A model generated the notes under the pieces. That model searched no databases. It was not told the origin of the DNA and saw nothing but the letters and a program-made list of their open reading frames with translations. From sequence record MT446405.1: 64,000 nt of DNA. The stretch is one strand, 5' to 3'. The first letter of the stretch is position 1. Each line of letters begins with the position of its first letter. The translations under genes and the position numbers were made by a program. Positions 3,432 to 36,784 of this stretch are shown piece by piece. The stretch is from Escherichia virus TH32.

Positions 3432-4970
3432 TTAAATAAGAACGTCACGACCTTCAACGCGACGCACAGCATCATCTTTAGAGTAGATTAGCGTGTATGT
3501 TGCATAGTATTCGGTGCGGTTATCGGAAGTGGTTTCAGTGTCAAAATCGACAGTCAACCAATAACCGATAGTCTCAACCTGCCGCCAAGCAGTGTTGTCA
3601 CCGGAGGTTTGCGTGATGTACTGTTTCTGAATTTCCGTCAGCGCCTTACCGACAGAGATGGTGCCGTTAACCTTCGCATTGTCAACAGCAACTTGAATCA
3701 TGGCTTGGACAGTCGCTTTGCCTTCTTCGTTTGCAGGCACGCGACCAAGATTCAAGAACATGCTGAACAGCTGAGAAGTGATAGCAGATTTAAGCCACAT
3801 CTCGTTGGCATAAGTGTTCATGTCAACTGCTGCGGTAGACCCGCCCATCAGAACACCACGCTGGAAGAACGCGAGAGTTTGACCAGCTTGCTGAGTCGCA
3901 CCGATATAGTTTGCACGGTTTTGATCAGCAGTATCTGCGCGTGAATCAGTCGATACGGTTACATTTCGCGTTTCAAACTGATAATACATGTAGTTTTGAG
4001 TTGCATTTACAGTGTTATAGTTTGTCGCCGCAAGAATTTCAGCAGGTGCCTGGTCGATGTAATCATTAGCGAGGTTAGTTGCACGGATCATCATACCAAC
4101 GCCTGAGTAACCTTTCAACGCGGTATAGTATGAGCCGATGTTGGCGAATGCAGTCGAGAACAGATACATGTACATGTTGTTCTGCGAGTGAGTCCAAGCT
4201 GCAACGGCTGTGATTTCTTCCAGCGTTCGGTCTGCTCCAGCGAAAAGGAATGAGCCAAAGTTGTTGGAAATCTCCACAGATGCTGCGATGGCTTCTACCG
4301 GACTTGCTACACCCTGGCCAGCAACCGTAACGGTGCCAGTAGTCGTCCAACCAAGCGCCTGAGATGGGTCGGTCGGTTGGCCTGTGACGTTGATAGACAG
4401 GTTGCCTGCACCAGCGGTCGAAGGCGCTGCTTCCAGCGTAAACTGCTGAGTATTAGCATTCCAATACACTTCTGCATCAGCAAGTGCAGGCACCGACGTG
4501 CCACCTTCTGCTGCGAATTTAGTATTGATTGCCGTTTCCAGAAGTTCAGCAACATTTGCCAGACTTGTCGCCGCTGAAAGGTTAATTGCGTCAGTCAGGT
4601 AGTCTGTGCCATCGTAAGTGATGCTTAAGATAGCGCCAGTAAATGCTTGAAACGTAGCAAGCACTTTAGGCTCAGTATCGCCGATAACCATTGCAGGAAT
4701 CGCCGTGGATACAACGCGAGAAAAGCTGATTGAATCAGGCGAGTTGATTTGCTTGCTGATGAATCCAAAATACAGTGCTGCGCGCTTGTATTCTTCGGAA
4801 GAAAAACCAAAATATGATCCAACGGCATCAGCAGTTGAAAATTCTGCTACAATGCCTGGCGGCAGAACTGTATTAGAAGTCATGACGCGAAGCGACAGTT
4901 TGCGAACTGCAACAGCCGCGCCTGCTCCGACCCCTGATACAATTTTAATATAACGAGATTGACTGATCAC
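3432..4970 (-). CDS. Putative tail sheath protein
   Basis: 512-aa ORF directly upstream of a tube-like gene in the structural operon. Assignment is by size and position only. Confidence 0.4.
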   Translation of the reverse strand: MISQSRYIKIVSGVGAGAAVAVRKLSLRVMTSNTVLPPGIVAEFSTADAVGSYFGFSSEEYKRAALYFGFISKQINSPDSISFSRVVSTAIPAMVIGDTEPKVLATFQAFTGAILSITYDGTDYLTDAINLSAATSLANVAELLETAINTKFAAEGGTSVPALADAEVYWNANTQQFTLEAAPSTAGAGNLSINVTGQPTDPSQALGWTTTGTVTVAGQGVASPVEAIAASVEISNNFGSFLFAGADRTLEEITAVAAWTHSQNNMYMYLFSTAFANIGSYYTALKGYSGVGMMIRATNLANDYIDQAPAEILAATNYNTVNATQNYMYYQFETRNVTVSTDSRADTADQNRANYIGATQQAGQTLAFFQRGVLMGGSTAAVDMNTYANEMWLKSAITSQLFSMFLNLGRVPANEEGKATVQAMIQVAVDNAKVNGTISVGKALTEIQKQYITQTSGDNTAWRQVETIGYWLTVDFDTETTSDNRTEYYATYTLIYSKDDAVRRVEGRDVLI

Positions 4971-8639: not shown

Positions 8640-9278
8640 TTAACGAGTCAATTGTACAATGGTATAAGTGGAAGACTGGACGCTTGGGCCGGAAAGGGCA
8701 ATAGCAGTCGGGTCAATCACGATACCGCCTGGAATGGCAACCATGCCAGTTGGCAGTGAGCCAGTATAGGCGATAATTGCACCGATAGGCAAGTTGTTCG
8801 GGTTGTTACCGCTGGAAATGCCTTTAGGTACATAAGCGAGCAGGTCGCCGTAGTTCAGCGTCTGCGGACTGGTGCTTGGGTTGAATACTTCAACTACGAG
8901 GCCCGTGCACATATCGTAGAACTCGCCTTCGCTATATTGAGGCAGAACCATGCTGGCACCCAAAGGACCAGTAGAGTTGCCATACAGAGCGTAACGCTTG
9001 CTGTTGCCAAGGATGCCATAGTAATTGGTGCCGCCCAGTTCAACTTCAAAGTCCTGCGCGCCCAAGGTTTTGGTCTGGCCAGTACCCATTAATGACACAT
9101 CAGCCTTAAAACCAAACACACGGCTGATGGCGTTTACGTTTGCACCGTCGTTGGCGCTAACGATTCGGCCTGGCTTCCCACGCTGTGGGCCGTCGCGAAC
9201 GATGTCGCCAGGAAAGCCAGTTGTATATTGACGGCCTACACTAGTTTGGAAAGTCATGTTTATTCCCCTTTCAACCAA
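8640..9278 (-). CDS. Hypothetical head protein (possible decoration/accessory)
   Basis: 212-aa ORF between scaffold-like and capsid genes. Confidence 0.4.
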   Translation of the reverse strand: MVERGINMTFQTSVGRQYTTGFPGDIVRDGPQRGKPGRIVSANDGANVNAISRVFGFKADVSLMGTGQTKTLGAQDFEVELGGTNYYGILGNSKRYALYGNSTGPLGASMVLPQYSEGEFYDMCTGLVVEVFNPSTSPQTLNYGDLLAYVPKGISSGNNPNNLPIGAIIAYTGSLPTGMVAIPGGIVIDPTAIALSGPSVQSSTYTIVQLTR

Positions 9279-10681
9279 GCTTCAAATGCTTCGTCAGTTG
9301 CTGCAGAATCCGCAGCGGCCTTTTGTTTTGCGACTACACGCTGTTTTTGACCGTGCTCAACGCCGCGCAGATAATTATCCACCACGTCAAACTCAGCCCC
9401 ATCAACGCACTTCAAGCCTAACTTTTTAGCGCCATATTTCGCTACGGACTTGGAGTCCATAGTTGCATGATCAAAGGCACCAACAACTTTAGACAGGCGC
9501 TGGTAGAGGCTATTCTTACGAGCAGAATCAGCGTAGAAAGCAGCAACTGCTGAATCAGATGCCATTGAGTGTTCCCCTTTTGCTGGACCTGGCGACGCTT
9601 TCGCCGCTTTTGTCGGTTTGTCATCTTTTTCGACCGAAGCCCCCTTTACGTTGCTGTTTTGCAGGCCGCTAACCACATCTTCAGCTTTGTCGCAAGGTGA
9701 TACATCTTCAGCCTTGACTTCAACTTCTTCTTCGTCTTTGACTTCGGCTTCAACTTCTTCTTCATCACCTACCGCGCCACCTTTCAGTTTTGCAATAAGT
9801 GCTTCGATTTGGCTGATCAATTGCGGAAGTTCGCCGCCAGCGTGAGATTCAGCTTCAACTTCAAACTTCTCTTCACCTTCTGGGGTTTCTTCTGCTTCTG
9901 CCTTGACTTCTGGATCAACCATTACTTCTTCACGATTTTCGGTTGAGTCCTTCTCTTCTGCTTTCACTTCAACTTCATCCTGATGAGCAGCTTCAGTACT
10001 CTCTTCGTTCAGAAATTGTTCGAGCGCAGGAATCAGTGATTTCAGCTGTTCAACAGCATTATCACGCGCTTTACCTTTTAACGGTTTTGGCATGTCTAAA
10101 TCCTCGTTGGATGGTGTTACAGTCGTCAAACAAAGATGGTCAAAGCAACGACCATCCAGCACCCGTGCACCTGGTACTCGACCAACGTCCACGAGAGCAA
10201 TGTGGTTGCCGCGAAGAGTTGTCTGCACCACTTCATACGGCTGCCCGTCAAACTCTCCAGACTGTATGATGAATTCACAGTCATAGCCCAAAGACAAGTC
10301 AACCTTTCCAGAATCAATGGCCTTCTTAAGACGACGGCTGAACACTTTAAGGTCGCCGCGCATCCATGGCTTGTCATAATAAACATTGCCAGTCAGAACG
10401 CCATCAACTCCATACTCTTCGGGTGCTGTGTTATCCTCATCACCTTCAAATCCAGAAAGCATTTCGTGATTGTCGATGAAAGGGATATTTTTGAATGAAT
10501 CTATCGCTTCGGGGTCTTTCACCGCTGACTCAGGGCGATAGACTTTTACGATGCGATTCGGATCACCATCAAGACCAACTTGACCAGCAGAATAATCAAA
10601 AATGCCAAATGACGAAATTGGACAACCCATAATCGTCAAGAATCCATTTTTGTCAATTTCGCGTGCCGTTTGCATTCGCAT
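9260..10681 (-). CDS. Scaffold-like protein with acidic low-complexity core (possible prohead protease/scaffold fusion)
   Basis: 473 aa; central run of E/V/K/A repeats (EEEVEAEVKDEEEVEVKAED) typical of scaffolding proteins; sits upstream of the capsid gene. Confidence 0.45.
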   Translation of the reverse strand: MRMQTAREIDKNGFLTIMGCPISSFGIFDYSAGQVGLDGDPNRIVKVYRPESAVKDPEAIDSFKNIPFIDNHEMLSGFEGDEDNTAPEEYGVDGVLTGNVYYDKPWMRGDLKVFSRRLKKAIDSGKVDLSLGYDCEFIIQSGEFDGQPYEVVQTTLRGNHIALVDVGRVPGARVLDGRCFDHLCLTTVTPSNEDLDMPKPLKGKARDNAVEQLKSLIPALEQFLNEESTEAAHQDEVEVKAEEKDSTENREEVMVDPEVKAEAEETPEGEEKFEVEAESHAGGELPQLISQIEALIAKLKGGAVGDEEEVEAEVKDEEEVEVKAEDVSPCDKAEDVVSGLQNSNVKGASVEKDDKPTKAAKASPGPAKGEHSMASDSAVAAFYADSARKNSLYQRLSKVVGAFDHATMDSKSVAKYGAKKLGLKCVDGAEFDVVDNYLRGVEHGQKQRVVAKQKAAADSAATDEAFEAWLKGE

Positions 10682-10779
10682 CCACCCTCAAATAAGTATT
10701 GTGTATTATATCTAATGAAAAAAACTTAGGCAAACAATAATTATGGTTTGAATATGTATAACAACCGATATAGCCGCGC

Positions 10780-11060
10780 CTTTATTAGTGTGATACGGAT
10801 GATACGGATAAAATGAGGCGTATTTTTATCCGTATCGGTGTATAAGCCGCGCTATCACTGGTGTGCTACGGATGATACGGATGATACGGATACTTTTCAT
10901 ATATAAGAGTTTATAAAAAAATAAAATTAAATTAGATATATAATTTTAAATTAATTTATTTGAATTCCTATATAGTACTGCGGCAACGCGTATCATCCGT
11001 ATCATCCGTAAGATTCTTTTGAAAACAACAACTTACTTGATACGGATGATACGTCATTAT
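10780..11060. repeat. Iteron cluster: 9-bp tandem GATACGGAT-type repeats in both orientations flanking an ~85-bp AT-rich spacer
   Basis: tgatacggatgatacggata (10791), ctacggatgatacggatgatacggatac (10866), AT-rich 10895-10975, cgtatcatccgtatcatccgtaagatt (10989), gatacggatgatacg (11039). Same motif family recurs at 26.97-27.3 kb. Confidence 0.7.
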
Positions 11061-11096
11061 ACGTATAAAACTCGCAGCAATCCTTTGCCGATGAAT

Positions 11097-11234
11097 TCAG
11101 TGAATATTAAATAGCACTCCTGCCACTAAAACGCCAATCAACATCGAGTCATAAACAGCCCATTTCCAAGAAAGCAAAGAGTTGCAATTAATATTTCGCA
11201 CTTTAACATAACGTGACTGAATAATCTTTTGCAT
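11097..11234 (-). CDS. Small hydrophobic protein (45 aa)
   Basis: Minus-strand ATG with AAGAGGAAG RBS; product MQKIIQSRYVKVRNINCNSLLSWKWAVYDSMLIGVLVAGVLFNIH has a C-terminal hydrophobic segment; below the track size cut-off. Confidence 0.3.
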   Translation of the reverse strand: MQKIIQSRYVKVRNINCNSLLSWKWAVYDSMLIGVLVAGVLFNIH

Positions 11235-11244
11235 AACTTCCTCT

Positions 11245-12165
11245 TTAGTTCAGCTTAATTGCGGTGATCTGTCCGTAAACGGTAGATGTCAACGCGTCGG
11301 TGCACTGATAGTTTAAATACACATTACCAGGCGCGGCAAGAGTAATTACTTTTGTTGGGATGTTGCCGCCGAAGCGACCTGCAGCCCGAATGCCAGCTGA
11401 CATGGCAAATGCATCATCCGTAATATCTGAATTGCTTGTTGACAATTTGACTGTAATTCCGGTATTCGCTTGAACGCCTGCTGTCGCGACAGTCAACTGA
11501 CTTGCTGTTACAAGCCATTTCCCTGCAGGAAGGTTTAAGGTTGCCAGATTGACCAAAGTTGTTGGAGGATTGCTGACGCTATTAGTGGCATTCTGGACGG
11601 TACTTGCTGCTGCATTAAGCACACCAGACCCATCAATTGATAGAGTTGTACCGACCTTTACGCCGCCTAAAGTAGATGCTGAGGCAATCGGCAATGAGTA
11701 TTGGGTGACGCTGATTGTACCATCACCTGCTACGCTTATTCCGGTGCCTATTTTGACGCCACCAAGAACGGAAGCTGTTGCCGCTGGTAACGTGTATTGG
11801 TTGCCGCTGGTTTTCACAACTTTGACTGCGACAGCGTTTTTCGACCCTCCAGACTCCATACCTATGATCACTGCTTCACCAAAAGCAATGGTGATTGTTG
11901 ATGCAGTCAAGCCAGTTTGAACGTCTGTGATGTTCATCTTAGGCACAGACAATGTCAGGTTAGGCTTGCTGGTCGAATCGCCATCATTGCCAATCATAAA
12001 GAATTGACCTACTGAGTTATACCCTGATGCAAGCGGCGGGCTCAGTGGAACAATCAAGTTTTTATCAGAAGTGAATTCTGAGACAATTGCCAAGCCATTA
12101 GCATACACCGCAGGCAAGACTGGAGTTTGTCCAGATAGAGGGAATGTGTTGATTGGTATCGTCAT
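11245..12165 (-). CDS. Fibre-like protein with tandem G/V/T-rich repeats
   Basis: Internal repeats TLPAATASVLGGVKIGTGISVAGDGTISV / SLPIASASTLGGVKVGTTLSIDGSGVLN resemble phage fibre repeat units; start moved to the internal Met (12165, RBS GAGG) to avoid overlapping the upstream gene. Confidence 0.45.
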   Translation of the reverse strand: MTIPINTFPLSGQTPVLPAVYANGLAIVSEFTSDKNLIVPLSPPLASGYNSVGQFFMIGNDGDSTSKPNLTLSVPKMNITDVQTGLTASTITIAFGEAVIIGMESGGSKNAVAVKVVKTSGNQYTLPAATASVLGGVKIGTGISVAGDGTISVTQYSLPIASASTLGGVKVGTTLSIDGSGVLNAAASTVQNATNSVSNPPTTLVNLATLNLPAGKWLVTASQLTVATAGVQANTGITVKLSTSNSDITDDAFAMSAGIRAAGRFGGNIPTKVITLAAPGNVYLNYQCTDALTSTVYGQITAIKLN

Positions 12166-12172
12166 AATGACC

Positions 12173-13024
12173 TCAGATAATTGGTATTTTTCTGCACTTG
12201 CAGTGTATTGCCCATCCAGGAGGACCGATGTCACCCTTTTTGAACTTAAGTTCTCCACCTACTTCCCATAAGCGTTTGTCATCAAGCTTGAATCTCATGC
12301 CGTCGACGTGCTCATGTGATATTCGCGGCTCTTTGCCTGCTCCTGAATGCGCCCACTCAAATTCCTCAACGCCATTCTGTCGCATCCTTTCATCACTTAA
12401 TACGCAATAAAGTTTGCTCGTTTGGTCTTTGGCGATAAGGTCTACGCGTTTTGCAGAGAATTGTTTTACATTCCTTAGTGCCGCCTGAATGCCGGATGTG
12501 CCTTGCTGCGCTGGGTCTGGCGAAGTCAGCGAAAGCATCACCGCTTCGTACACCCTGTTGTGAATATCCTCGCCAACCTTAGTCACTAGAGTCGTGTTGA
12601 ACGTCTCGCTTGTTTTAAGAGTGTTCTCAACGAATTTATTATATGTGGCTTTTGGCGCTTCTATTCCTGCAGATTTAAGACTTGCGAATGTAGCAGAAGT
12701 CGCACCCTTTTCAACTGACTTGATGAAATCTGCGGCAATCTTTGACCCAACACGGGCGAATGCTTTTGCCCATTTCAGTTGAAGGCGCTTCATCAAGGTC
12801 TGAAAAGTTGAATCAGCAGAGTCTTGCGCAAAGAACTTTTTCACCTGCTTCTTTTCAAGCCACTCAGCAATGCCTGCCTGATAGTCATCAATCATCGCAT
12901 AGCAAAGACCTTTCATCTCACGACGATAGGCCATCGCAATAGCGTTGGATGGGATTATCGGACTGCCGCGCCCGATTCTATCGGGTGAGCGGCGTTCGCG
13001 TTTTTTCGAAGCTTTAAAAGCCAT
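12173..13024 (-). CDS. Head morphogenesis protein (Mu F / SPP1 gp7-like)
   Basis: C-terminal PPGWAIHCKCRKIPI matches the P-x-H-x-x-C-x-C signature of this family; lies just downstream of the portal gene. Start placed at the internal Met abutting the portal stop. Confidence 0.55.
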   Translation of the reverse strand: MAFKASKKRERRSPDRIGRGSPIIPSNAIAMAYRREMKGLCYAMIDDYQAGIAEWLEKKQVKKFFAQDSADSTFQTLMKRLQLKWAKAFARVGSKIAADFIKSVEKGATSATFASLKSAGIEAPKATYNKFVENTLKTSETFNTTLVTKVGEDIHNRVYEAVMLSLTSPDPAQQGTSGIQAALRNVKQFSAKRVDLIAKDQTSKLYCVLSDERMRQNGVEEFEWAHSGAGKEPRISHEHVDGMRFKLDDKRLWEVGGELKFKKGDIGPPGWAIHCKCRKIPII

Positions 13025-15563: not shown

Positions 15564-15980
15564 ATGAGCACAACAATTGTATTTGTCGTCCTTCATCAAG
15601 GCGAAGTGGTAAACGTATGCGAATATGAAGAGCTGGCAAAAGCCACTGCTGCGCGATATGAAGGTGCCACAGTTGACCCTTGGATTTTGGATGCGCGAAA
15701 CGTGTTGCAGGCGACCATGGATGAGTGGCTTTTAGGTCGCAAGGTGTATCCGGTTGAAAACATCGAATCCATTCAAGGTGAAACAGTATACTTTGAAGAT
15801 GAATGCGTTCGCGGCATTGGTAAATTTATTGGATTGTGCCCATCTTCATCCAAAAATAAATTTTATCGTATTCAAGTTGAAGAGAACGATATGTTCGACA
15901 AAGTAACGCGCTCGATTGTTCCTGGCGGCGGCACTCCAATCTTTATGGCAGAATCAGACATCAAGGGGATCATCAAATGA
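15564..15980 (+). CDS. Hypothetical protein
   Basis: 138-aa plus-strand ORF with AAAGGAG RBS, in the gap between portal and terminase genes. Confidence 0.45.
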   Translation: MSTTIVFVVLHQGEVVNVCEYEELAKATAARYEGATVDPWILDARNVLQATMDEWLLGRKVYPVENIESIQGETVYFEDECVRGIGKFIGLCPSSSKNKFYRIQVEENDMFDKVTRSIVPGGGTPIFMAESDIKGIIK

Positions 15981-16216
15981 GAACGTTAACCGAACTCGAT
16001 GTTTTGAAAGACGTTGCAGCCGCGCTGGGCGTAGAATTATCCGAAAAGGCGACACTAGGTGCTTTGCGTCGGGATTTACTCGAAGCCGTTGACCGCAACG
16101 ATTTTGACCGTAAATGTATGCAAAAGAAGATTCGGCAGGCGGTGAGAGCGGGTAAGCGATTCCGTGCCAGGTCGTTTGCCGCAAGAAAGCTTGACCTTCA
16201 GCACGGAATGCTTTGA
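15977..16216 (+). CDS. Hypothetical protein
   Basis: 79-aa ORF translationally coupled (ATGA overlap) to 15564..15980. Confidence 0.4.
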   Translation: MRTLTELDVLKDVAAALGVELSEKATLGALRRDLLEAVDRNDFDRKCMQKKIRQAVRAGKRFRARSFAARKLDLQHGML

Positions 16217-16219
16217 TTG

Positions 16220-17680
16220 TTAAAGGTTAGAGAAGAAGCCGGATGCTGCAACGATTGGTTTCATCAATGCCATGATTGCTGCGTCCGCTTTGTTAGGTGA
16301 TTTGACTCCACGCTTTGCCATATCCTTTTTGGATTCAACTTTGAACTTGCCAAGAACAGACGTATCTTTGCGCGGCGCTGACATCTCAAAAAGAAACGTC
16401 TCAATCTCTTCAGTAGTCCAAGCTGGAATCCCAAGTTCCGGTATACCATCGGTGTCGATTGAAATCAATTCATCAGTCGGATATACGGCTTGCCCAGTTG
16501 CATATTCGTATGTCTTTCTGAATCTCTCTGCAATTTCAGTCCACTTTTGCGCTTTTATGTTTGCGAAATGGTCTTTATTGAGTATTTCAACGTGTGGTAG
16601 CTCAAGAAAAACGTCATCAGGATCATCAACAGACCCTTGCGCGTTGAACGCATTAAATTCGATTCTTGGAAATGATGGATTTTCATGTATTGCATACTCG
16701 TTTAGTTCATCAAATTTTGAACCAGCAAAAGCGCCGACACCGATGGCGTCATAAGTTATAGAAGCGCCAAATGTAAGCGCATCTTTCCAAACTCCGCTTG
16801 CCGATTTCAACAATTCATCTTCCAGACCTTCCCACGTCTTGATGCCGCGCAATACGTTTCCTGTAACGAATGCAGTGGCGTTAAGGTCGTCGCCATCGTC
16901 CGCTACGTCAAAGCCTATACGGTTAGACCCTGACAAACTCCAGCCCAGCGTAGGGTGTTTGTGGAGATTAAGAGCGGCCTTAACGAATGCACGGTTGATT
17001 ACAGATTTATCGCCGCCAGTCTTCGGCACGCCGCCATAAACGTGCTCTGCCTTTTTCGGGTCGCGCTCGTACATGCCTGCGATAACATCCAGCATTGTTT
17101 GCGACAAGAATGGGTTGTCTTGCCAGTTTATCTTTTTAACTATGGCATTCTTCGGCGGTCGCATAACAAAGTTTTGGTAGACGAAATCGGCCTCTTCATC
17201 AGGGTTAAAGATGATCCATATTTCTGACCCTTCTTTACGGATTGTCGGCTCAATAATGTCCCACTGTTCTTCAGTAAGTGCGTGCGCTTCTTCCAGCCAA
17301 AGAACATCAACACCTTCCGTTGATTTAATTTCATCAACGTTACGTGCGATACCGTAAAATAGAAATTCAGATTTAGTTCTTTTATGCTCGATAGAGTTCT
17401 TTAATAAATTGAACTCATCTTTAAAATCAGAAATCTCTATTTTATCTTTTAATAGAGTATATACAGATTCAGAAATCTTGTTCTGGAATTGTCGAACGCA
17501 AAGGAATTTTAATTTGAAGTTTGCCGCCAAATAAATAGCAAAACCAGCGGCATCATGCGATTTGGAAGATGCACGACCGCCGTATATTACTTTGTATCGC
17601 GCTTTTGTCTTCCAGACTTCTTTTAAAGCAGGATTCAACTGGTACATGACTTTCCAATTATGTGTTAATATTTTATTCAT
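16220..17680 (-). CDS. Terminase large subunit
   Basis: 486 aa; N-terminal Walker A-like YGGRASSKSHD (terminase ATPase P-loop type), acidic nuclease-type C-terminal half. Confidence 0.8.
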   Translation of the reverse strand: MNKILTHNWKVMYQLNPALKEVWKTKARYKVIYGGRASSKSHDAAGFAIYLAANFKLKFLCVRQFQNKISESVYTLLKDKIEISDFKDEFNLLKNSIEHKRTKSEFLFYGIARNVDEIKSTEGVDVLWLEEAHALTEEQWDIIEPTIRKEGSEIWIIFNPDEEADFVYQNFVMRPPKNAIVKKINWQDNPFLSQTMLDVIAGMYERDPKKAEHVYGGVPKTGGDKSVINRAFVKAALNLHKHPTLGWSLSGSNRIGFDVADDGDDLNATAFVTGNVLRGIKTWEGLEDELLKSASGVWKDALTFGASITYDAIGVGAFAGSKFDELNEYAIHENPSFPRIEFNAFNAQGSVDDPDDVFLELPHVEILNKDHFANIKAQKWTEIAERFRKTYEYATGQAVYPTDELISIDTDGIPELGIPAWTTEEIETFLFEMSAPRKDTSVLGKFKVESKKDMAKRGVKSPNKADAAIMALMKPIVAASGFFSNL

Positions 17681-18972: not shown

Positions 18973-19314
18973 ATGAACAACACTTTATCACAACTGCTAA
19001 TCTGGACTATCGCCGCTATCATCGGCACCGTTATTATGATGTCAAGCGCAAAGGCTGAAACGGATATTTGCGGCAGACTGATTTCTGAAAACGGTGAAAT
19101 TTACTATGGCAACTCAAAAGGCGATTACATATCACCTGAAGTTTGCGCTCAGAAGAAAGCGGAAATGCAAAAGCAGTATCATGAAGATCAATCTATATCT
19201 CAAGCCGCGCTGATTGAATTAAGTATATCAGCCATCATCTTTCTAATCGTTTTTATGCTCATTATTAAACCAAATAATGGCAGTAATCGTCATATTCCTC
19301 TCAAAAGAAATTAA
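18973..19314 (+). CDS. Secreted/membrane protein with N-terminal signal-like segment
   Basis: Internal Met with AAAGAGG RBS; MNNTLSQLLIWTIAAIIGTVIMMSSAKAE looks like a signal peptide; second hydrophobic segment near the C-terminus. Confidence 0.4.
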   Translation: MNNTLSQLLIWTIAAIIGTVIMMSSAKAETDICGRLISENGEIYYGNSKGDYISPEVCAQKKAEMQKQYHEDQSISQAALIELSISAIIFLIVFMLIIKPNNGSNRHIPLKRN

Positions 19315-19352
19315 GGTTATAATACGGTTGTCGACAAAAAGAGGACCGTAAA

Positions 19353-22845: not shown

Positions 22846-23226
22846 ATGTCAAATAAAAATGATTCTATGAGTCACACATATACTAAAGGCAGCGGCATTG
22901 CTTTTGGTTCCAGCATCAAAATTGACGCTCCACCTTGCTATTCTGATGGATTGGAAGTTGGCAACCGTGACTTGACATGGGTTTTACGTCGCCAATCCGA
23001 TTTAGAAGAGAAGTTGGAAAATATTGAGCGTTCTCTCGAAAGTTTGCGCGACCAGCTTTTTGGTTGTTCTGAAGATGATTCTAAATCTCCAGAGTATTGC
23101 GTTAATCATGGTTTGATTGATAATATGCTCGCCACAACCGCTCGATCAATTGGTAAAACTGTGTCCATTGAGTCGTTGATCAGCCAGATTGCTGATGGAT
23201 TTGGTGATGCCCATAAGAGTGAATAG
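22846..23226 (+). CDS. Hypothetical protein
   Basis: Track ORF 22780..23226; start at the internal Met with AAAGG RBS; last plus-strand gene before the ORF-free island. Confidence 0.45.
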   Translation: MSNKNDSMSHTYTKGSGIAFGSSIKIDAPPCYSDGLEVGNRDLTWVLRRQSDLEEKLENIERSLESLRDQLFGCSEDDSKSPEYCVNHGLIDNMLATTARSIGKTVSIESLISQIADGFGDAHKSE

Positions 23227-23257
23227 TGGGTGGATGTTGCTTTAACCGTGAATCGTG

Positions 23258-23285
23258 GGTCGCTGTGGCGGCCCTTTCTTTTGCC
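23258..23285 (+). terminator. Putative terminator after the plus-strand gene block
   Basis: Imperfect GC hairpin gggtcgc-tgtg-gcggccc followed by tttcttttg. Confidence 0.3.
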
Positions 23286-23924
23286 TGCCGCGCAGGAGTG
23301 TACTGCAAATTTCCTGTGGGTACAAAATAGTACGGTACTGTCCAGGACTTTTTCTTTGAAAAGTTAGTGGACCAAATGTGTAGTATTTTGATTAGTGTAC
23401 CGCAAATTCCATCAAGTACCAAAACGCACCAAAAGACCCATGCCATAAAAACCACACGAACGCAATAATCAATCGACGTTACAGTTTCCAGCGTTACAAT
23501 TCGAAAGCGAATGATTCGACGCATAATAATATGAAGCATAATGATTCGAAAGCAAATGATTGCGTGTAGGATAATATCGGTGGGGATTATTCTAGATGCA
23601 TGTAATTTCGCATGCGTACTATTTTCGGACGAAGGGTCGGCATATTCCTCGTTTTAGTTCGGAACGAAGGGAAAGTTTTGCGCCTTTATAAAACAACGAC
23701 TTACGCGACCCGCCCTAACGGTCCGATATAGGTGTCTATATAAAACAAGGACTTACGCGATGTTCTCCATTTAACGTAATACCTGTTATGCGAACTAAGA
23801 CGCATCTCGAAGAAGATTATGCGACGACGAAGGGAAGGATAAAGGAGTTTTCGCGTAGGAGCGCATCGAGATAGGGACGAAGAAAAGCCGCGACTAAGCG
23901 CGGCCTATTAGTAACGGAAGGGTA

Positions 23925-24215
23925 TTATAAGGAGACGATTTTAAAATAAGTTACTTCGCCGCCGAGTTGCGGTACAGCGATATATTCGCCGCCGATTTCG
24001 GTAATCGTATAAACGAAGCCGTTAATCGTTACGCGATAGGATACGATGTCCTCGTCGCGATACTTGTAAAGGTCGAGGAAGTTGATCGGCTCATAAATAG
24101 ACTCGATAATCGCGTCTACGTTAGAGAGATAAACGCTCTCTAAGGTTTCGCCAAATACGTTAGAGTTTTCGGAAGTTTCGACGCGAGCGGAACGGATAGC
24201 GGCTAAAGTAATCAT
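23925..24215 (-). CDS. Island paralog family member 1 (96 aa), unknown function
   Basis: AGGAG RBS; paralogous to 24850..25134 and 24324..24626 (shared SEN..VY..NVD..IE, F.LY, NG(F/Y), EIG blocks); own promoter-leader cassette. Confidence 0.55.
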   Translation of the reverse strand: MITLAAIRSARVETSENSNVFGETLESVYLSNVDAIIESIYEPINFLDLYKYRDEDIVSYRVTINGFVYTITEIGGEYIAVPQLGGEVTYFKIVSL

Positions 24216-24283
24216 AATAATCTCCTAGTTGGTCGGGCGGGTAGCGACCTATTCGCTACCTCATCCCCTCTCGATATAAAACA

Positions 24284-24320
24284 TTATAGTCTTAGTGTAC
24301 GAAGAAGTAAAGCACTTTTT
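24284..24320 (-). promoter_or_regulatory. Conserved promoter of paralog 1 (CTTTACTTCTTCGTACACT ... TATAAT)
   Basis: Minus-sense GTGCTTTACTTCTTCGTACACTAAGACTATAAT followed by the ATATCGAG leader; the same element precedes the other two paralogs. Confidence 0.5.
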
Positions 24321-24323
24321 TCG

Positions 24324-24626
24324 TTATTTTGCGATAAAATATTTATAAGCTTTATCGCCTTCTACGTCGATATACTCGACGATAATTAATGCTTCGCCGC
24401 GAGGCGTAACCGTCTCGATAAGGGTAACGGCTTCGTCGTCGGTCTTCGCGAAGCGGATGGCGCTACGTTCGGCGTATTTAATTTCGTCGAAGGAAAGGCC
24501 GACGAAGGCGACGGCGCGCGCTTTAATAATGCTCGTTTCGAGTTCCGCGTTAACGGCAGCGATAAGAGAGCGAACGGTTAAGCGGTCTTCGTCGTAAGTA
24601 AGGATGGAAGAGATTAAAGTAGTCAT
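24324..24626 (-). CDS. Island paralog family member 2 (about 100 aa), unknown function
   Basis: Track ORF 24324..24683; start placed at the internal Met MTTLISS (RBS GGAG) which aligns with the paralog N-termini; conserved promoter upstream. Confidence 0.5.
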   Translation of the reverse strand: MTTLISSILTYDEDRLTVRSLIAAVNAELETSIIKARAVAFVGLSFDEIKYAERSAIRFAKTDDEAVTLIETVTPRGEALIIVEYIDVEGDKAYKYFIAK

Positions 24627-24683
24627 AATAAAGCTCCCGATGCTAGTAGAAGGAAGGGCCATCGCCCGTCTCGATATAAACAA

Positions 24684-24725
24684 GTATACGCGAGTGTACG
24701 AAGAAGTAAAGAAAAAGATAAAATA
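24684..24725 (-). promoter_or_regulatory. Conserved promoter of paralog 2
   Basis: Minus-sense CTTTACTTCTTCGTACACTcgcgTATACT then tgtttATATCGAGACGGG. Confidence 0.45.
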
Positions 24726-24747
24726 ATTTATCGCATTTTTATCGAAA

Positions 24748-24790
24748 AAGTGCTTTACTTTTTTCTACACTATATTATAATGTACTCATA
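24748..24790 (+). promoter_or_regulatory. Conserved promoter of paralog 3 (divergent from the paralog 2 promoter)
   Basis: GTGCTTTACTTTTTTCTACACTatatTATAAT then gtactcATATCGGGACGGG. Confidence 0.5.
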
Positions 24791-24849
24791 TCGGGACGGG
24801 ATGAGTTAACGAATAGGTCGTTAACGCCTCTCCCAACTAGGAGTTTAAA

Positions 24850-25134
24850 ATGGCTATTCTTAACGTTTCTTCTATCCGTAACGCCATCGTCGAGAACTAC
24901 GGCGTAAAACAAAAATTATCCGAAGTCTACGCCGCGAACGTAGACCAAACTATCGAAGAGGGTGGGGTAACGGTCGCCGAGGCTTTTAAACTTTACGCGG
25001 CGTTACCGGAATCGGACCGCGAAGCCTTCGAAGTAAACGTTAACGGATACTTCTTCGAAGCGGTCGAAATCGGTAATATTTTACTCGTTATGGGCGAAGA
25101 AGAATTTGAGACCTTCTCCCTCGTCGAAGCGTAA
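24850..25134 (+). CDS. Island paralog family member 3 (94 aa), unknown function
   Basis: AGGAG RBS; clear paralogy to 23925..24215; leader carries a conserved hairpin. Confidence 0.55.
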   Translation: MAILNVSSIRNAIVENYGVKQKLSEVYAANVDQTIEEGGVTVAEAFKLYAALPESDREAFEVNVNGYFFEAVEIGNILLVMGEEEFETFSLVEA

Positions 25135-25214
25135 GAGAGGATTTTTAGAGCGTCGTGCGCGGCGCTTTAATAAAATTCTTTCGCGCCTAGCGCCCTAACA
25201 AATAGGAGTTTATT

Positions 25215-25841
25215 ATGGTTAGCTTAAATCGCTTTTCTACTAGCGGCGACGTTATCGCAACTAAGACCGCCGACCTCGTTGCATTTTACAATGCAAATTC
25301 CGGTTCGAAGCCGATTAAAAAGTTCGCTGACCGCCGGACCGCCGAGACTCGCGTAATCGCGCTAATCGAGTCCTTAAACGCGCTCGATGAGCCGTCCAAC
25401 GAATCGCCCATCCCAGACGCGAAGCCGCGCGAGGAAGTGTCCAGCGATGTAAAAACGCACAAGGCGCGTGCGGTCGTTAAAAAGGCCGAGCCGACCCAGG
25501 AAGAACTCGACGCGATGAGCGATGAAGAGTATGAAGCCTTCGTTAAGAGCGGCTTAAACGATAGTGCAAATTGCGTAGTGCAAAATGGAACTCCTTCCCA
25601 TCGCCGTTCGAATAGCGAAGGTATTGCAAAAAGTTGGGATAATAAGGAAGTGGCGCAAAAGCGTCTTACCCGTAACGGCGTTATGGTCGAGGGTGTAGGC
25701 GAGTTCAAATCGGTCCGCGTAGCATTCGCCGCGCTGGGCTTACCGGATAGCAAACACATTCGCTTCCGTATGAAGCTTAAGGAAGCTGGGCGCTTGAACT
25801 TCGAGTTCGGCAACAAGTCCTACACATTCCAGATTATCTAA
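25215..25841 (+). CDS. Hypothetical protein (208 aa)
   Basis: AGGAG RBS; shares the CG-rich codon style of the island; contains two ATAGTGCAAA boxes read as D-S-A-N-C. Confidence 0.45.
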   Translation: MVSLNRFSTSGDVIATKTADLVAFYNANSGSKPIKKFADRRTAETRVIALIESLNALDEPSNESPIPDAKPREEVSSDVKTHKARAVVKKAEPTQEELDAMSDEEYEAFVKSGLNDSANCVVQNGTPSHRRSNSEGIAKSWDNKEVAQKRLTRNGVMVEGVGEFKSVRVAFAALGLPDSKHIRFRMKLKEAGRLNFEFGNKSYTFQII

Positions 25842-25891
25842 TCGAATGGCGGCCCTTCGGGGTCGCTTTTCATAGTGCAAATTGGTGGCTT

Positions 25892-26155
25892 ATGAATACG
25901 CTTATTCTCATCGCTACGTTGTCCATCGGAAGTGGTCGCACCTTATCCCTTTACGACCATAGTGCAAATTGCGCTTACCCTACGCGCGTTGCGGCAATAG
26001 TTAATAGTGCAAATCGAATGCTATTCGAAACTTGTTGGCGGGTCGATAACGAGAAAGGGCGCATCGTCTTAGGTTATAGTGCGAATCTGCTGGTGGAGTC
26101 GTTCGATTGGACGGTTGAAGGTCGTAAATTGTTACGTAAGGTGACTAAAAGATGA
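25892..26155 (+). CDS. Questionable ORF overlapping the ATAGTGCAAAT boxes
   Basis: 87-aa ORF whose frame reads the boxes as xSAN; no convincing RBS; may be non-coding. Confidence 0.25.
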   Translation: MNTLILIATLSIGSGRTLSLYDHSANCAYPTRVAAIVNSANRMLFETCWRVDNEKGRIVLGYSANLLVESFDWTVEGRKLLRKVTKR

Positions 26156-26269
26156 CTTATAATAATACACTTTCTAACGCGTTTATGGTTGTAACCTTCC
26201 CCGTCGTATTACCGATGGCCCTAGAAGTGGAGAAAATGTGTTCTAGGGCCGTTTTATAGTGCAAATTGG

Positions 26270-26758
26270 CTAGTGGCGGGAGAATTGCTCGCCTTCTTTG
26301 GCCGCCTCTCCGAAATCCTTGTAGAAATCGTCCATGGAACGGCCCATTTTACTATTGCCGTTTTCATCAATCATCGTGATGCCGTAGATGATATTCAGTT
26401 CACGAATAGCATTAAGTTTGGCTGACGCCGCGACTTCTGGATCACGCACAAGCTTGACCAAATTGTGAATTGCACCTTTTACGCTCCACAAATCCTTGAG
26501 TGGCATCTCTTCCATACGCTTTTTGAAGCGCATTTTGTAGTATGGGTTGCGTTGCGCGCAAAGGATTCGCTGGCCAGTGTAGCTATCCGTTGCAACTTCC
26601 ATTCCAAATACTAGTGCAAAAGCTGCGCGCATGTCATGGCCCTGAATAACAAGGTCAATGAACTCATCGAATAAAGCCTGATTGTGCTCTGCAAATCGCG
26701 GGTCTTCAAAGTCTTCAGGCATCGCTACATAATCTTGACTCATAGTGCAAAATCCCAT
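26270..26758 (-). CDS. Hypothetical protein (162 aa)
   Basis: Minus-strand ORF with typical phage codon style; start region coincides with the ATAGTGCAAAT boxes, so the true start may be the second Met (MSQDY, at 26743). Confidence 0.45.
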   Translation of the reverse strand: MGFCTMSQDYVAMPEDFEDPRFAEHNQALFDEFIDLVIQGHDMRAAFALVFGMEVATDSYTGQRILCAQRNPYYKMRFKKRMEEMPLKDLWSVKGAIHNLVKLVRDPEVAASAKLNAIRELNIIYGITMIDENGNSKMGRSMDDFYKDFGEAAKEGEQFSRH

Positions 26759-26969
26759 AGTGCAAATTAATAGTGTGAATTATACAATGGATGGACATTA
26801 TATTCAAGTGCAGATTGATGTTCATTATGGCTATAAACGTACACAAATCACAGTGCTGAATGGATAACGGACCGTGGTGCGTGGTGTACTGTTTGATACG
26901 TATAAAAGAAATCCATCCCTTTTGCCGCTTGTTATGCAAATCAATGACTTAGCCGCTGCTGGCTGGTCG

Positions 26970-27300
26970 AAGCGTATCATGACGTATCATCCGTATTGCC
27001 GCAAGTCTTTGTTTTTACTTATATCTTACGGATAATACGTTAAATATATAAATTAACATAAGTATGAGGATGTAGAAAAAAATTAATTTAAATGATTTTA
27101 AAATGGAGTTAATTAATTTTTCAAATTATATATATAACGATGCCCAGTTTTATCCGTATCATCCGTAAGATTAATGTACAAGCCAGGCGCGGCAAGGGCT
27201 GTACACTGATACGGATAAAAAACCATGACGTATCATGACGTAAGGGTGTACCAATTTGGAAAGGATGAATCCAGGAACGGCGCGGCCTGTAGCCATGATA
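26970..27300. repeat. Second iteron/AT-rich region, homologous to 10780..11060
   Basis: cgtatcatgacgtatcatccgta (26975), AT-rich 27040-27140, ttatccgtatcatccgtaagatt (27149; near-identical to 10989-11015), gatacggataaaaa (27208), catgacgtatcatgacgta (27226). Confidence 0.7.
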
Positions 27301-27581
27301 CGCTTAATTTTTAACCGTATTTTAGGCGTATCAAATGTGTTCAAACACCAAGTTTCACGACACTAAAATTTCAATCCATAGACAATTCCTAACAAACACC
27401 ACGGACTAATAGATACGCCCTATAAAATATATTTCTAAATATTTCCGCACAATCAATAAATAAAACACAACCTCATAATCATTCCATCGCAAAACACGAC
27501 CCAAACAACAAAAGGCCGCATAAAGCGACCCATTGCACACATTCCATTCTTCAAAACACGTAAACAGTGTTCGTTTATTCA

Positions 27582-28118
27582 CTATATCTTAGGCATTAAT
27601 CCCTTTTCAGTTCTCCTTTTTATTTCTTCTTTTATCATTTTATTGGTGACTTTATAGCCAATCCTCTCCAATTCCAGCAGCACTTCGTTTTGGTATTTTT
27701 TTATCTTCACAATATCGACTGTATCCCTCCAATAAGAAAATACCTTCTGAATTACTGCTTCATCCATTTTATATCTTGCTGTCGTCCTGTATTTCGATTT
27801 GAAGATATAATTGATTGCATCAGTCTTTAACCATTCGCTTCTCAACTCAGGGTGATCATCCCAAAGAGCTATGGCAAACTCTTGCGGGCTTTTACATCTT
27901 TTTCTAAGCTCCTTTATGTAATCAGTTATGCTGGTTTTGTCACAAAAACGTTTGCGGCAAACTTTGCATTCTTCCTTGAGTAACCATTCAGCCTTATTAC
28001 TTTGCGACGCTGATTCATTATCCCTTCTGTACCTGCCGCATATACTTATTCCTTCATTATCCAAGAAGTAATGCAAGTCTTTAGAATACTTAGCTTTACG
28101 CCAAAAGCCGCCCATCAA
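27582..28118 (-). CDS. Hypothetical Cys-rich protein (178 aa)
   Basis: Last gene of the minus-strand early cluster; several Cys pairs (CKVCRKRFC, RKRCKSP). Confidence 0.45.
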   Translation of the reverse strand: MMGGFWRKAKYSKDLHYFLDNEGISICGRYRRDNESASQSNKAEWLLKEECKVCRKRFCDKTSITDYIKELRKRCKSPQEFAIALWDDHPELRSEWLKTDAINYIFKSKYRTTARYKMDEAVIQKVFSYWRDTVDIVKIKKYQNEVLLELERIGYKVTNKMIKEEIKRRTEKGLMPKI

Positions 28119-34466: not shown

Positions 34467-35114
34467 TTATCCTGTGGCCTGCATATTGCGTACATACTTC
34501 TGCTCTAATGAATAGATGAAGTCGGCGACAGTCAATCCCTTCGTGTGCCATTCATACATGGTGAAGCCTGTATTCAGGAAATAGCCGCGCACCTTGTCCA
34601 TCGCTTCAGCTTCCTCCATTGAAGCCATCAGCGCCGCGACATTGTCATAAGAAGGCACAAATCCCTTCTTGCGTAGCGCATTGCGCAAATCCTTAGTTCG
34701 GAATCCAATCTTGCAGGGGTCATCACGACCCGTGGATGATGCGACCTTTGGAAGAGCAAGGAACTCTTTAAGGAACATTGCAATGTTCAAGTCGCCTGCG
34801 TCATCAAGCTTCTGGATTCGGTTGCGACCGCGACCCTTGAATTCACTCGCACGAGGGTGAGAGCCAAAACAGTGCGCCCCTTCCAGTTTAGGGTCAATGA
34901 TCATTACATCTTTCCCAATGCGCAACTCTACGTAGTAAAGATAAGACTCATCGACAAGCTTTGTGCGCTTGCAAGTGATTGAGTCCTTATCATAACCAAA
35001 GCCACGCAACACGGTTGAAATCATCCGGTTCATTTCTTCGCCGTGAACATCACTTTCTTTGTTCAGTTCACCAAGATGTTGAAAGAATTTAGCGATGTTG
35101 ATTGCTTTATTCAT
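34467..35114 (-). CDS. Hypothetical protein (215 aa)
   Basis: Coupled (ATGA) to the primase-helicase gene. Confidence 0.45.
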   Translation of the reverse strand: MNKAINIAKFFQHLGELNKESDVHGEEMNRMISTVLRGFGYDKDSITCKRTKLVDESYLYYVELRIGKDVMIIDPKLEGAHCFGSHPRASEFKGRGRNRIQKLDDAGDLNIAMFLKEFLALPKVASSTGRDDPCKIGFRTKDLRNALRKKGFVPSYDNVAALMASMEEAEAMDKVRGYFLNTGFTMYEWHTKGLTVADFIYSLEQKYVRNMQATG

Positions 35115-36784
35115 CAGAATTCATCCTTATCTCTTCCCAAAGAACGTTTACGCTCAATAACCTTCTTCAAGAATTCAATATCTTCAGGGTCAGACTCATC
35201 GCGGATAAGATACGCTAAGATGGTCATCAAATCAGAAATGTATTCTCCTGCTTCATTCTTAATCAGCGGCGTAAAGTAACCGCGCTGGTTGCGATAGGTT
35301 GCAGGCTCAAAACCAAGCTTCGACATATGCGGCGCAAGGGTACGAGAGAAAGGCGACTTGCCGCACTTCGCTCTGAATCCCATAGCAATAGCACCACTGG
35401 TGATGTGCCAGCGTCCGCTGTGATGTCGGTCATAAGGCGCGGTGATGACGACTTCAACAAGGTCGTTGTCCACCATCTCATCACGAATAACGCCGCGCGC
35501 ACGTTCCATTTCGTTCTTACTAAACTCAGTAAGCATGCGAGATGTTTCACCAACAAACGCGTTGTAACCTGCTTCGCCGTGTTTTTCCATCCACGCAGCA
35601 CACTCAGCCATCAACTGCCAAACGTCTTCTTTCAAAGTGGAAAGGTCAGCTTGGAAATCTTTCGACCAGTTCGGTTGCCCGTCCTTGTCAGCGAGTTGGC
35701 CAACAAAGATAGGGTACACACGACGGTTGCCCGTGTCGTCACGCTGCATGCCTGCGTATTCGTTGCCGTCCATGATCGCAATCCACTGGCGTGGTTTAAC
35801 CTGAGTATCTTCAAATTTGAAGTCCAGGTCATCTTCCGTCTTAGTCAGGAATGCTTTCATGTTTTCGATGTCGGCCTTTTTAAAGCCTGTCATCTCGCCA
35901 ACGTTCGCGATAATTGAGCGACCCGTAATAGCTCGCAAGAACGGGTTGAAGTTCTGCGCGGCTAAGTTCAACGGAATCGGTGTTGCGTGGCGGTCGTTCA
36001 TAATAGCTTCGCAAAGCAGCTTGCTAAAATAACTTTTCCCTGCGTTCTGGCCGCCGATGAGCGCGATAGAAATTGGCGCTTGACAGCCAGGGTTGGTCAG
36101 GCGGTTATAGAGCGATAGCCAAAAATACACACCGATTTGTCGGTTTAACTCTGTATCGAACGGTCGGAATAGCTCGATAAGGTATTTCTCGATGCGCGCA
36201 GTACCGTCCCATTCAGGCAGCTTCTTGTAGAAGAAGTCCATCAGGTCGTCGCGCTGATAACGCATGGCCCATTCCTTATAGGATTGAGCGACCTGACGTG
36301 AGTTTGGGTTAGACAGCCCTGCTGCGTCGACAGCGGCAACTATCTCTGTGACTTCCAAGGTACGGTCAGTGAATGTTTCGCCGCGATGGTCGACTAAGCG
36401 CCCACGAAAAGTATCTTTGTGAGGGAATGGAACAATGCCACTTCCCTTATCAAACAACGCGTCGAAAACCGCATAACGGTTCATGTCACTCGTCCGGTCT
36501 GCCTGTAGAACGAAGTCATCTTTGGTAGGCTTGTAGTGAGGGAACTTGATTACCTGAAGTGAGGCGAGCAAGCGTGCTCTTTCAACCAAGTCTTCTTCAC
36601 CGTAGCATTCCATGCGCTCTGAATCTTTTTCAACAGCTTTATGTTGAAGGCTGATTTTAGCTCTGGTGCCTTGCTGCTCTGCTGCCTGCATTTCTTCCGA
36701 AACGCCTGCATCTTGAATTTCGTCAAAGATTGCACCAAATTCATCACCTGTATCCTCTGGAAGATTGTCATTATTAATTGACAT
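35114..36784 (-). CDS. Primase-helicase, SF3 type (P4/D5-like C-terminal ATPase)
   Basis: 556 aa; Walker A IALIGGQNAGKSYF in the C-terminal half with an N-terminal domain of primase-associated size. Confidence 0.6.
   Translation of the reverse strand: MSINNDNLPEDTGDEFGAIFDEIQDAGVSEEMQAAEQQGTRAKISLQHKAVEKDSERMECYGEEDLVERARLLASLQVIKFPHYKPTKDDFVLQADRTSDMNRYAVFDALFDKGSGIVPFPHKDTFRGRLVDHRGETFTDRTLEVTEIVAAVDAAGLSNPNSRQVAQSYKEWAMRYQRDDLMDFFYKKLPEWDGTARIEKYLIELFRPFDTELNRQIGVYFWLSLYNRLTNPGCQAPISIALIGGQNAGKSYFSKLLCEAIMNDRHATPIPLNLAAQNFNPFLRAITGRSIIANVGEMTGFKKADIENMKAFLTKTEDDLDFKFEDTQVKPRQWIAIMDGNEYAGMQRDDTGNRRVYPIFVGQLADKDGQPNWSKDFQADLSTLKEDVWQLMAECAAWMEKHGEAGYNAFVGETSRMLTEFSKNEMERARGVIRDEMVDNDLVEVVITAPYDRHHSGRWHITSGAIAMGFRAKCGKSPFSRTLAPHMSKLGFEPATYRNQRGYFTPLIKNEAGEYISDLMTILAYLIRDESDPEDIEFLKKVIERKRSLGRDKDEF

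Follow-up and report, generated by a model that had tools for sequence, protein, structure and literature searches.

A repeat module upstream of the head protease gene of Escherichia virus TH32 shares its architecture and repeat family with the module that holds the genome end

INTRODUCTION

What is a block of tandem repeats and nearly pure A+T doing between two head genes of a phage? The question is raised by positions 10682 to 11244 of the stretch of Escherichia virus TH32 analyzed here (64,000 nucleotides of record MT446405.1, hereafter the window). The original prediction, made from the letters of the sequence, took this region for a replication origin or a packaging site, and not for a simple promoter, and considered its place in the middle of the head module unusual. 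Pbunaviruses and their relatives, Wifcevirus among them, are widely used in or have been proposed for phage therapy, yet the reports consulted on their genome ends conflict and leave the packaging signal undefined.

RESULTS

Genes around locus A

A megablast search with window positions 10000–12000 returned 28 phage records, all of them Wifcevirus myoviruses with E. coli or Shigella as hosts. At the region in question, referred to as locus A, the best match is the BASEL phage Bas101 (99% identity). The minus strand is the coding strand of the flanking genes on the left and on the right, and the protease gene is the first gene downstream of the repeat module (module A):

9260–10681, minus strand: head maturation protease gene (DUF2213), from the ORF list, the Bas101 annotation and Pfam (E 4.6e-35)
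11097–11234, minus strand: 45-aa ORF with a hydrophobic C-terminus, annotated in relatives; a neighbor of the module, outside the module itself
11245–12165 as annotated, minus strand: gene for a head-fibre-domain protein, to the right of the 45-aa ORF

The left-hand neighbor had been described as scaffold-like and is instead the protease; the right-hand one, described as fibre-like, does have a head-fibre domain. The small hydrophobic ORF is real, and its copy in vB_Eco4M-7 carries an annotated transmembrane domain prediction. Since this ORF is a genuine annotated gene, the non-coding DNA at locus A spans 415 bp (10682–11096) rather than the 560 bp first proposed. ORFs of 44–49 aa, counterparts of the one at 11097–11234, also lie directly upstream of each comparable (A-like) gap in other genera, in PB1 (12479–12619) and MTx (16508–16657), with matching tiny ORFs in BCSR52 (8692–8832) and tabernarius (19195–19329).

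Compared with six other Wifceviruses, the core of module A is 96–99% identical, the protease gene 97–99%, the region of the 45-aa ORF 92–100% and the head-fibre gene 87–93%. The core is thus conserved as well as the protease gene, and better only than the genes to its right. Elsewhere in the head region, two small plus-strand genes (15564–16216) break the minus-strand run between the large terminase and portal genes. The first of them, 15564–15980, has no Pfam match; both are kept in Wifcevirus relatives, and PB1 and MTx have more opposite-strand genes at this place.

Repeats and AT spacer of locus A

The repeat unit of module A is 9–10 bp long, with the consensus GATACGGAT. The elements of the module are as follows:

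10760–11074, both strands: core of module A, with 13 repeat units arranged as inverted tandem arms on either side of an AT spacer
10772–10809 and 10845–10882, plus strand: two copies (84% identity) of a 38-nt composite unit, AGCCGCGC-N12-GATACGGATGATACGGAT
10792–10836: left outer arm, GATACGGAT twice (plus strand), then AATACGCCT and GATACGGAT (minus strand)
10865–10891, plus strand: left inner arm, GCTACGGAT GATACGGAT GATACGGAT, with a 9-bp period
10892–10976: AT spacer, 85 bp, 89.4% A+T
10986–11012, minus strand: right inner arm, three units
11039–11066, plus strand: right outer arm, GATACGGAT GATACGTCAT TATACGTAT

Seven copies match GATACGGAT exactly (at 10792, 10801, 10828 on the minus strand, 10874, 10883, 10995 on the minus strand, and 11039), with one-mismatch copies beside them; the count of 13 units comes from a scan of 10760–11074 with the looser pattern NNTACGNNN. 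From left to right, two plus units and two minus units are followed by three plus units, the AT spacer, three minus units and finally three plus units. Together, the inner arms make up a perfect 22-nt inverted repeat (10867–10888 and 10989–11010) around the AT tract. The description of tandem 9-bp repeats in both orientations around an AT tract of about 85 bp was therefore accurate.

The repeats are specific to two places. Exact matches to the two-unit pattern TACGNATNATACG number nine in the 64-kb window, six in locus A and three in a locus near 27 kb (locus B). Allowing up to one mismatch raises the count to 11, whereas the expectation from shuffling is 0.82 and none of the shuffles had as many as 11. 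The 16-mer TACGGATGATACGGAT is confined to loci A and B in three complete Wifcevirus genomes, and in viral contigs outside Wifcevirus 16-mers of this type gave only single, apparently chance matches.

Two further observations concern the number and integrity of the repeats. In Bas101, the right inner arm of locus A is one 9-bp unit shorter (window 10986–10994), so the copy number of the unit differs among near-identical phages. The metagenomic Wifcevirus contig 3300045988_152943 in IMG/VR (68,520 bp) has both of its ends within the repeats of locus A, most likely an assembly break at the repeat and not a physical end.

A second short motif surrounds the arms in several genera; it reads GCGGCA(A) on one flank of the spacer and, as the complement, TGCCGC on the opposite flank. 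Its sites are at 10772–10781, 10845–10853 and 10980–10986 in locus A and at 26922–26929, 26996–27003 and 27188–27195 in locus B, and the motif is also found in the modules of PB1, MTx, XcP1, tabernarius and BCSR52. In the window, GCGGCAA has four copies in A plus B, compared with 0.44 expected. The motif might be a candidate site of a conserved protein, separate from the genus-specific repeat.

DnaA and IHF had been named as possible binders of the region. The DnaA box TTATNCACA has no match in the whole 64-kb window, and its relaxed form TTWTNCACA has one, outside A and B; the IHF consensus is absent from locus A and occurs once, in locus B only. On these counts, we rejected host-factor sites as the basis of the repeats. 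A structured RNA was set aside as well, because nowhere in the window did an Rfam family attain its gathering score. GC skew does not switch at locus A (−0.067 on the left, −0.034 on the right) and tracks gene strand; it reaches its cumulative minimum at 39.6 kb, the point of divergent transcription. In the Pbunavirus Banzai, skew minima lie within replication genes, away from the modules (PMC12390725). GC skew is a weak test of origins in phages, and these values are uninformative rather than decisive.

A sister module at the genome end

The locus near 27 kb holds a second module, B, with the features listed here:

26895–27335: module B, 15 units of the GATACGGAT family, about 16 kb from locus A
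27025–27042 (plus strand) and 27152–27169 (minus strand): inner arms of module B, around a 109-bp AT spacer
27104–27105: physical left end of the virion DNA and limit of the direct terminal repeat, at 9 bp from the center of module B
23423–27104: direct terminal repeat of about 3.7 kb, boundaries by homology with the Mansfield annotation (PMC6753283, PMC6563267)
26270–26758, minus strand: small terminase (TerS) gene, directly downstream of module B, from phmmer and the Mansfield annotation

The near-identical sub-element said to recur 16 kb away proved to be an exact 21-mer, ATCCGTATCATCCGTAAGATT, repeated at 27152–27172 together with the entire architecture of arms and AT spacer. Thus, A and B have one architecture and one repeat family, and it is B that contains the genome end, with terS directly downstream. 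Beyond the motifs and the architecture, the Wifcevirus copies of A and B have little in common.

The records of phages Mansfield, WFH and WFC, which come from two laboratories, all start at the base homologous to window position 27104. For Mansfield, PhageTerm predicted a terminal repeat of 3,673 bp (PMC6753283), and for WFC and WFH the terminal repeat is about 3.7 kb (PMC6563267). The start codon of terS is 346 bp from the mapped cut at 27104, and its product matches the ten-chain "Small terminase" entry 7UXE in the PDB (E 6e-34, residues 7–152).

The same cannot be said of locus A. Among the reported termini (the records of Mansfield, WFH, WFC and MTx, and the long-read start of JG024), none is a genome end at this locus, where cutting at low frequency may nevertheless occur. 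Locus A lies 16 kb away from terS, in front of the head protease gene, and so does not have the adjacency to terS that marks a pac site, and module A is without the conserved AAAATGGAGTT island that is present at the cut in B. The general proposal of an origin or packaging site is thus partly supported, and indirectly, by the sister module with its terminus beside terS; the reported ends include none at A itself.

Sequences near the two boundaries of the terminal repeat vary. Module B has two right-hand variants among Wifceviruses, in which the repeat motifs are kept and the intervening sequence differs. The switch between the types (region 27105–27620) occurs just past the conserved ATCCGTATCATCCGTAAGAT arm, at about 27171. 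The window is 99% Bas101-like at locus A yet has the other type to the right of the terminus; being opposite in type to Bas101 there, the phage is a mosaic, with module B as a recombination boundary. Near the opposite boundary of the terminal repeat (about 23423), on its inner side, window positions 23460–23570 contain several AATGATTCGA-like repeats, which are unrelated to the GATACGGAT family and may belong to the right-end processing signal. Just outside the terminal repeat, Mansfield has about six tandem CCCACGA units (3835–3885, corresponding to about 23225–23265 of the window) and the window has one or two, which indicates a variable microsatellite.

Transcription signals around both modules

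Locus A also contains ordinary transcription signals:

10705–10733, minus strand: sigma-70-like promoter, TTGCCT-17-TATAAT, reading into the protease gene (consensus scan, 10/12 matches)
11075–11090, minus strand: terminator-like hairpin and T-run, just past the 45-aa ORF

The promoter is 100% conserved in six relatives and lies about 60 bp from the nearest repeat. Module A sits between the hairpin (11075–11090) and the promoter (10733–10705), and the only promoter match inside it is a weak one (ATGAAA-17-TATCAT, 9/12). Module B is likewise bracketed by a terminator-like hairpin and promoter-like sites. The view that the region is not a simple promoter thus needs an addition, namely that an ordinary promoter and a terminator-like hairpin are also present and bracket the module.

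Transcription start sites (TSSs) have been mapped in the Pbunavirus 14-1 by ONT-cappable-seq (bioRxiv 10.1101/2023.10.13.562163, Table S3). One TSS, P014 at 13257, is near the A-like module of this phage; it belongs to a proximal sigma-70 promoter downstream of the repeats, homologous to the promoter at window 10705–10733. The list has no TSS within the A-like module or its AT tract. In the B-like region, two TSSs, P040 (59399) and P041, both drive the TerS gene (bioRxiv 10.1101/2023.10.13.562163). P040 is just downstream of a GGTAATTTGG arm, and the arm repeats occupy the stretch just upstream, where the promoter spacer would lie. Earlier papers on PB1 and JG024 describe AT-rich boxes and unexplained intergenic motifs, predict a promoter in the A-like AT tract, and suggest that the motifs are perhaps recognized by a phage sigma factor (PMC3008698). 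The cappable-seq data for 14-1 give a TSS at the proximal promoter only; the AT tract as the protease promoter finds no support in them and was set aside.

The pair of modules in related genera

Four genera have the module at both places, and in each of them the repeat is the genus's own and common to both copies:

Wifcevirus (the window): gap upstream of the protease gene 415 bp; repeat GATACGGAT; A and B share motifs, architecture and the exact 21-mer
Myosmarvirus, Serratia phage MTx: protease 53% identical; gap about 470 bp; repeat ACGAAAAGT(A)AAAAC
Pbunavirus, PB1: protease 45% identical; gap 551 bp; repeat GGTAATTTGG
Bcepfunavirus, Burkholderia phage BCSR52: gap 416 bp; repeat TAGTTAC at both loci

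The two copies can be aligned within a genome. In MTx, the A-like module and the module upstream of terS share 186 of 267 positions (70%, E 2e-21), and the alignment spans the phage's own PhageTerm terminus. The A-like gap of PB1 has a collinear copy at 58,780–59,060, and the 10-mer GGTAATTTGG occurs four times in the genome, two per locus. In BCSR52, the A-like and B-like modules are 72% identical over 157 bp. Judged from these sequences, the A/B pairing is ancestral, and four genera retain both copies. In Tabernariusvirus, which has a B-like module, the gap before the protease gene is only 153 bp and holds no full A-like module; Carpasinavirus XcP1 has a B-like module beside the primase-helicase gene and no A-like gap. 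Module A is therefore not indispensable for the lineage. XcP1 also has an 11-bp tandem repeat (ACAACCCCAGA-like, about 4–5 copies, 24961–25026) in the non-coding DNA that follows the primase-helicase gene, next to its B-like module.

With three other genera carrying the module upstream of the protease gene and an equivalent in oriR of phage SPP1 (see below), its position in the head module is no oddity of this phage, contrary to what had been thought.

Mapped cuts fall near the center of the module in three genera. In the Pbunavirus JG024, 36 of 161 long reads begin at 59,376 ± 5, with a matching pac fragment on gels (PMC10913387); this position lies within the B-like module, and the midpoint of its two arms is about 15 bp away. 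For MTx, the alignment places the cut about 16 bp off the module center, so that, with the 9 bp of Wifcevirus, the distances range from 9 to 16 bp. We also considered an injection-stop or entry signal tied to fixed ends, which is unlikely because Pbunavirus, reported in recent studies to be headful packaged and circularly permuted, keeps the pair.

Candidate binding proteins

We strongly infer that the repeats are putative sites of a sequence-specific protein, the same one for A and B. It would be encoded by the phage, since four genera keep the pair, each with its own repeat in both copies, and its specificity has very likely co-evolved with both copies. Besides TerS, the window offers one alternative candidate:

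35114–36784, minus strand: primase-helicase gene (VapE-like/DUF5906; Pfam PF05272, E 1.6e-28)

Gene adjacency does not choose between the two. In PB1, MTx, tabernarius, Gekk3-15 and BCSR52, the B-like module has the primase-helicase gene on one side and terS on the other. The module of XcP1 adjoins the primase-helicase gene and is 2.5 kb from terS, whereas in Wifcevirus the module adjoins terS, with the primase-helicase gene 8 kb away. Across the seven genera the result is a tie, as five keep all three elements together and the other two are opposed.

Something is known of TerS from phage E217. It is a decamer, its C-terminal helix is hypothesized to drive association between rings, and its overexpression leads to a smaller burst size; in vitro, it had no appreciable DNA binding (PMC9611059).

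DISCUSSION

We take it as firm that locus A and the packaging-initiation module are paralogues, with no genome end reported at A. Our preferred reading goes further and makes A a terminase twin; taken as a whole, it is quite possible, if somewhat short of probable. On the identity of the binder by itself we lean towards the ring-shaped small terminase, which would sit on both arms and place the nuclease of the large terminase over the AT spacer. Such an arrangement fits the cuts close to the module center in three genera and resembles pacL-pacC-pacR of SPP1. The position of terS next to B and the burst-size effect of E217 TerS can be counted in its favor. Against it stands the in vitro result for E217 TerS (PMC9611059), and gene adjacency favors neither candidate; the absence of a full A-like module from tabernarius and XcP1 counts against the reading as a whole. 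At A, we speculate, TerS would bind too, yet no mature end would be made, and the site would then be architectural or regulatory. It might tie expression of the protease-to-major-capsid operon to the level of terminase, the promoter start being about 60 bp away, or it might pair with B. Regulation of the head operon is a speculative role suggested by the position of the site.

Comparable layouts are known from other mobile elements and phages. P4 has two distant cis-acting sites, ori and crr, which have the same iterons and are both bound by the primase-helicase alpha. In the pac site of P1, short repeated hexamers lie on either side of the cleavage region. Both resemble A and B in layout only. 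The T4 gp16 sites are in genes 16 and 19. They are within coding sequence and a few kilobases apart, with no unique pac cut, whereas the modules described here are large, non-coding and 16–20 kb apart, and one of them has a precisely mapped cut; pairing is in this respect an analogy. The model of "twin-ring pac synapsis" proposes that the small terminase of T4 (gp16) pairs two related sequences before packaging (PMC9611059).

Phage SPP1 offers the closest comparisons, both for packaging and for replication. Its TerS (gp1) binds pacL and pacR, which flank the cut, and represses its own synthesis; its pac site is like module B in its position beside terS, in a cut between two arms and in the overlap with a promoter (PMC6316719). 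On the other hand, SPP1 has a single pac site with no second copy in the head genes, unlike the A/B pair, and the ends it makes are headful ends, whereas Wifcevirus has exact ends with a 3.7-kb terminal repeat. The modules here are built of tandem units of 7–9 bp in inverted arms, with a far longer spacer of about 100 bp of AT-rich DNA, and they are likened to pac from sequence, whereas SPP1 pac is known to be bound by TerS. The origins oriL and oriR of SPP1 resemble A and B as two modules of repeats plus AT-rich DNA, kilobases apart, and oriR, bracketed by transcription signals, lies between the portal/minor-head genes and the scaffold/capsid genes (PMC6316719). By analogy, oriR is the closest match to locus A in position and anatomy. 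Its sister copy, however, is inside the initiator gene 38 and is not a packaging site, whereas the sister of locus A holds a genome end and adjoins terS. We identified no gp38-like origin-binding protein here.

The most serious competitor of the terminase twin is an origin of replication. A and B would be iteron origins, or an origin and its cis-acting partner; unwinding would take place at the AT spacer, A would correspond to SPP1 oriR, and the binder would be an origin-binding protein of the phage, such as the VapE/D5-like primase-helicase. A second origin copy in the head operon might cause forks to stall and prompt the change to concatemer synthesis, and the cut in the spacer of B would reflect coupling of replication and packaging. 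The anatomy is that of classic iterons, tandem direct repeats beside an AT-rich tract of about 85–110 bp; at locus A, tandem runs with a 9-bp period (13 units in all) stand beside an 85-bp spacer with 89% A+T. The primase-helicase gene directly upstream of the B-like module in the five phages named above, the XcP1 module that stays with this gene and not with terS, the terminator and promoter that bracket each module, and the precedent of SPP1, whose two origins are similarly organized and whose oriR breaks the head gene order between transcription signals (PMC6316719), all speak for it. However, cuts 9–16 bp from the center are expected of a terminase bound to the arms and are not required of an origin, and the Wifcevirus module adjoins terS and is distant from the primase-helicase gene. 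The window is free of DnaA boxes, and skew, weak test as it is, does not switch at A and has its Banzai minima away from the modules (PMC12390725). Weighing these points, we consider an origin unlikely, although it deserves to be taken seriously.

We give much less credence to the idea that the repeats are operators of a phage transcription factor, neither terminase nor replication initiator, that co-regulates two late promoters, those of terS and of the protease-to-capsid operon, the genome end in B being incidental. Both modules are upstream of same-strand late genes, about 60 bp from sigma-70-like promoters, the 14-1 arm repeats are just upstream of the mapped TSS P040, "transcriptional regulator" genes are annotated in some Wifceviruses, and the promoter prediction and sigma factor suggestion in the PB1/JG024 work (PMC3008698) point the same way. 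Yet other late operons in the window start without repeats, the motif being found in A and B only; the A-like AT tract of 14-1 has no cappable-seq TSS; a module of 300–400 bp with 13–15 sites far exceeds the size of a typical operator; and a cut at the module center in three genera is hard to call incidental. Very improbable, in our judgment, is that locus A is a functionless relic, a gene-conversion product of the packaging site or a host-factor site. The 70% identity of A and B over 267 bp in MTx, possibly the result of recent conversion, is what such a history would leave, but four genera with proteases no more than 45–53% identical have retained the pair, the Wifcevirus copies share little but motifs, which argues for selection on the sites themselves, and the core of A is conserved as well as the protease gene. 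Repeats that differ from genus to genus argue against a common host factor, as do the absence of TTATNCACA from the window and of the IHF consensus from A. The remaining probability is reserved for explanations that we have not thought of.

Within the preferred reading of A as a twin of the packaging-initiation module, a bolder version is that PB1-like phages have a two-site packaging signal, in which TerS rings on B and on the uncut twin A pair loci 16–20 kb apart. We regard this version as improbable. If true, such pairing could sense the readiness of the concatemer or couple the expression of capsid genes to the availability of terminase, and the signal would be a natural, sequence-defined case of the synapsis so far proposed for T4 only.

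The literature searched (Ceyssens et al. 2009 excepted) describes neither the paralogy of A and B nor the genus-specific repeats, and it makes no link between these repeats and the mapped cut. The comparison provides a candidate recognition element for each of four genera, consisting of short tandem repeats, inverted arms and an AT spacer with a mapped cut. The second copy, which the lineage keeps before the head protease gene, is likewise without a description in that literature. Whether the twin is a TerS-binding regulator, a pairing partner or a second origin, each role would bear on how replication, capsid production and packaging are coordinated. In practical terms, the role would also indicate which DNA to preserve when these phages are engineered or rebooted.
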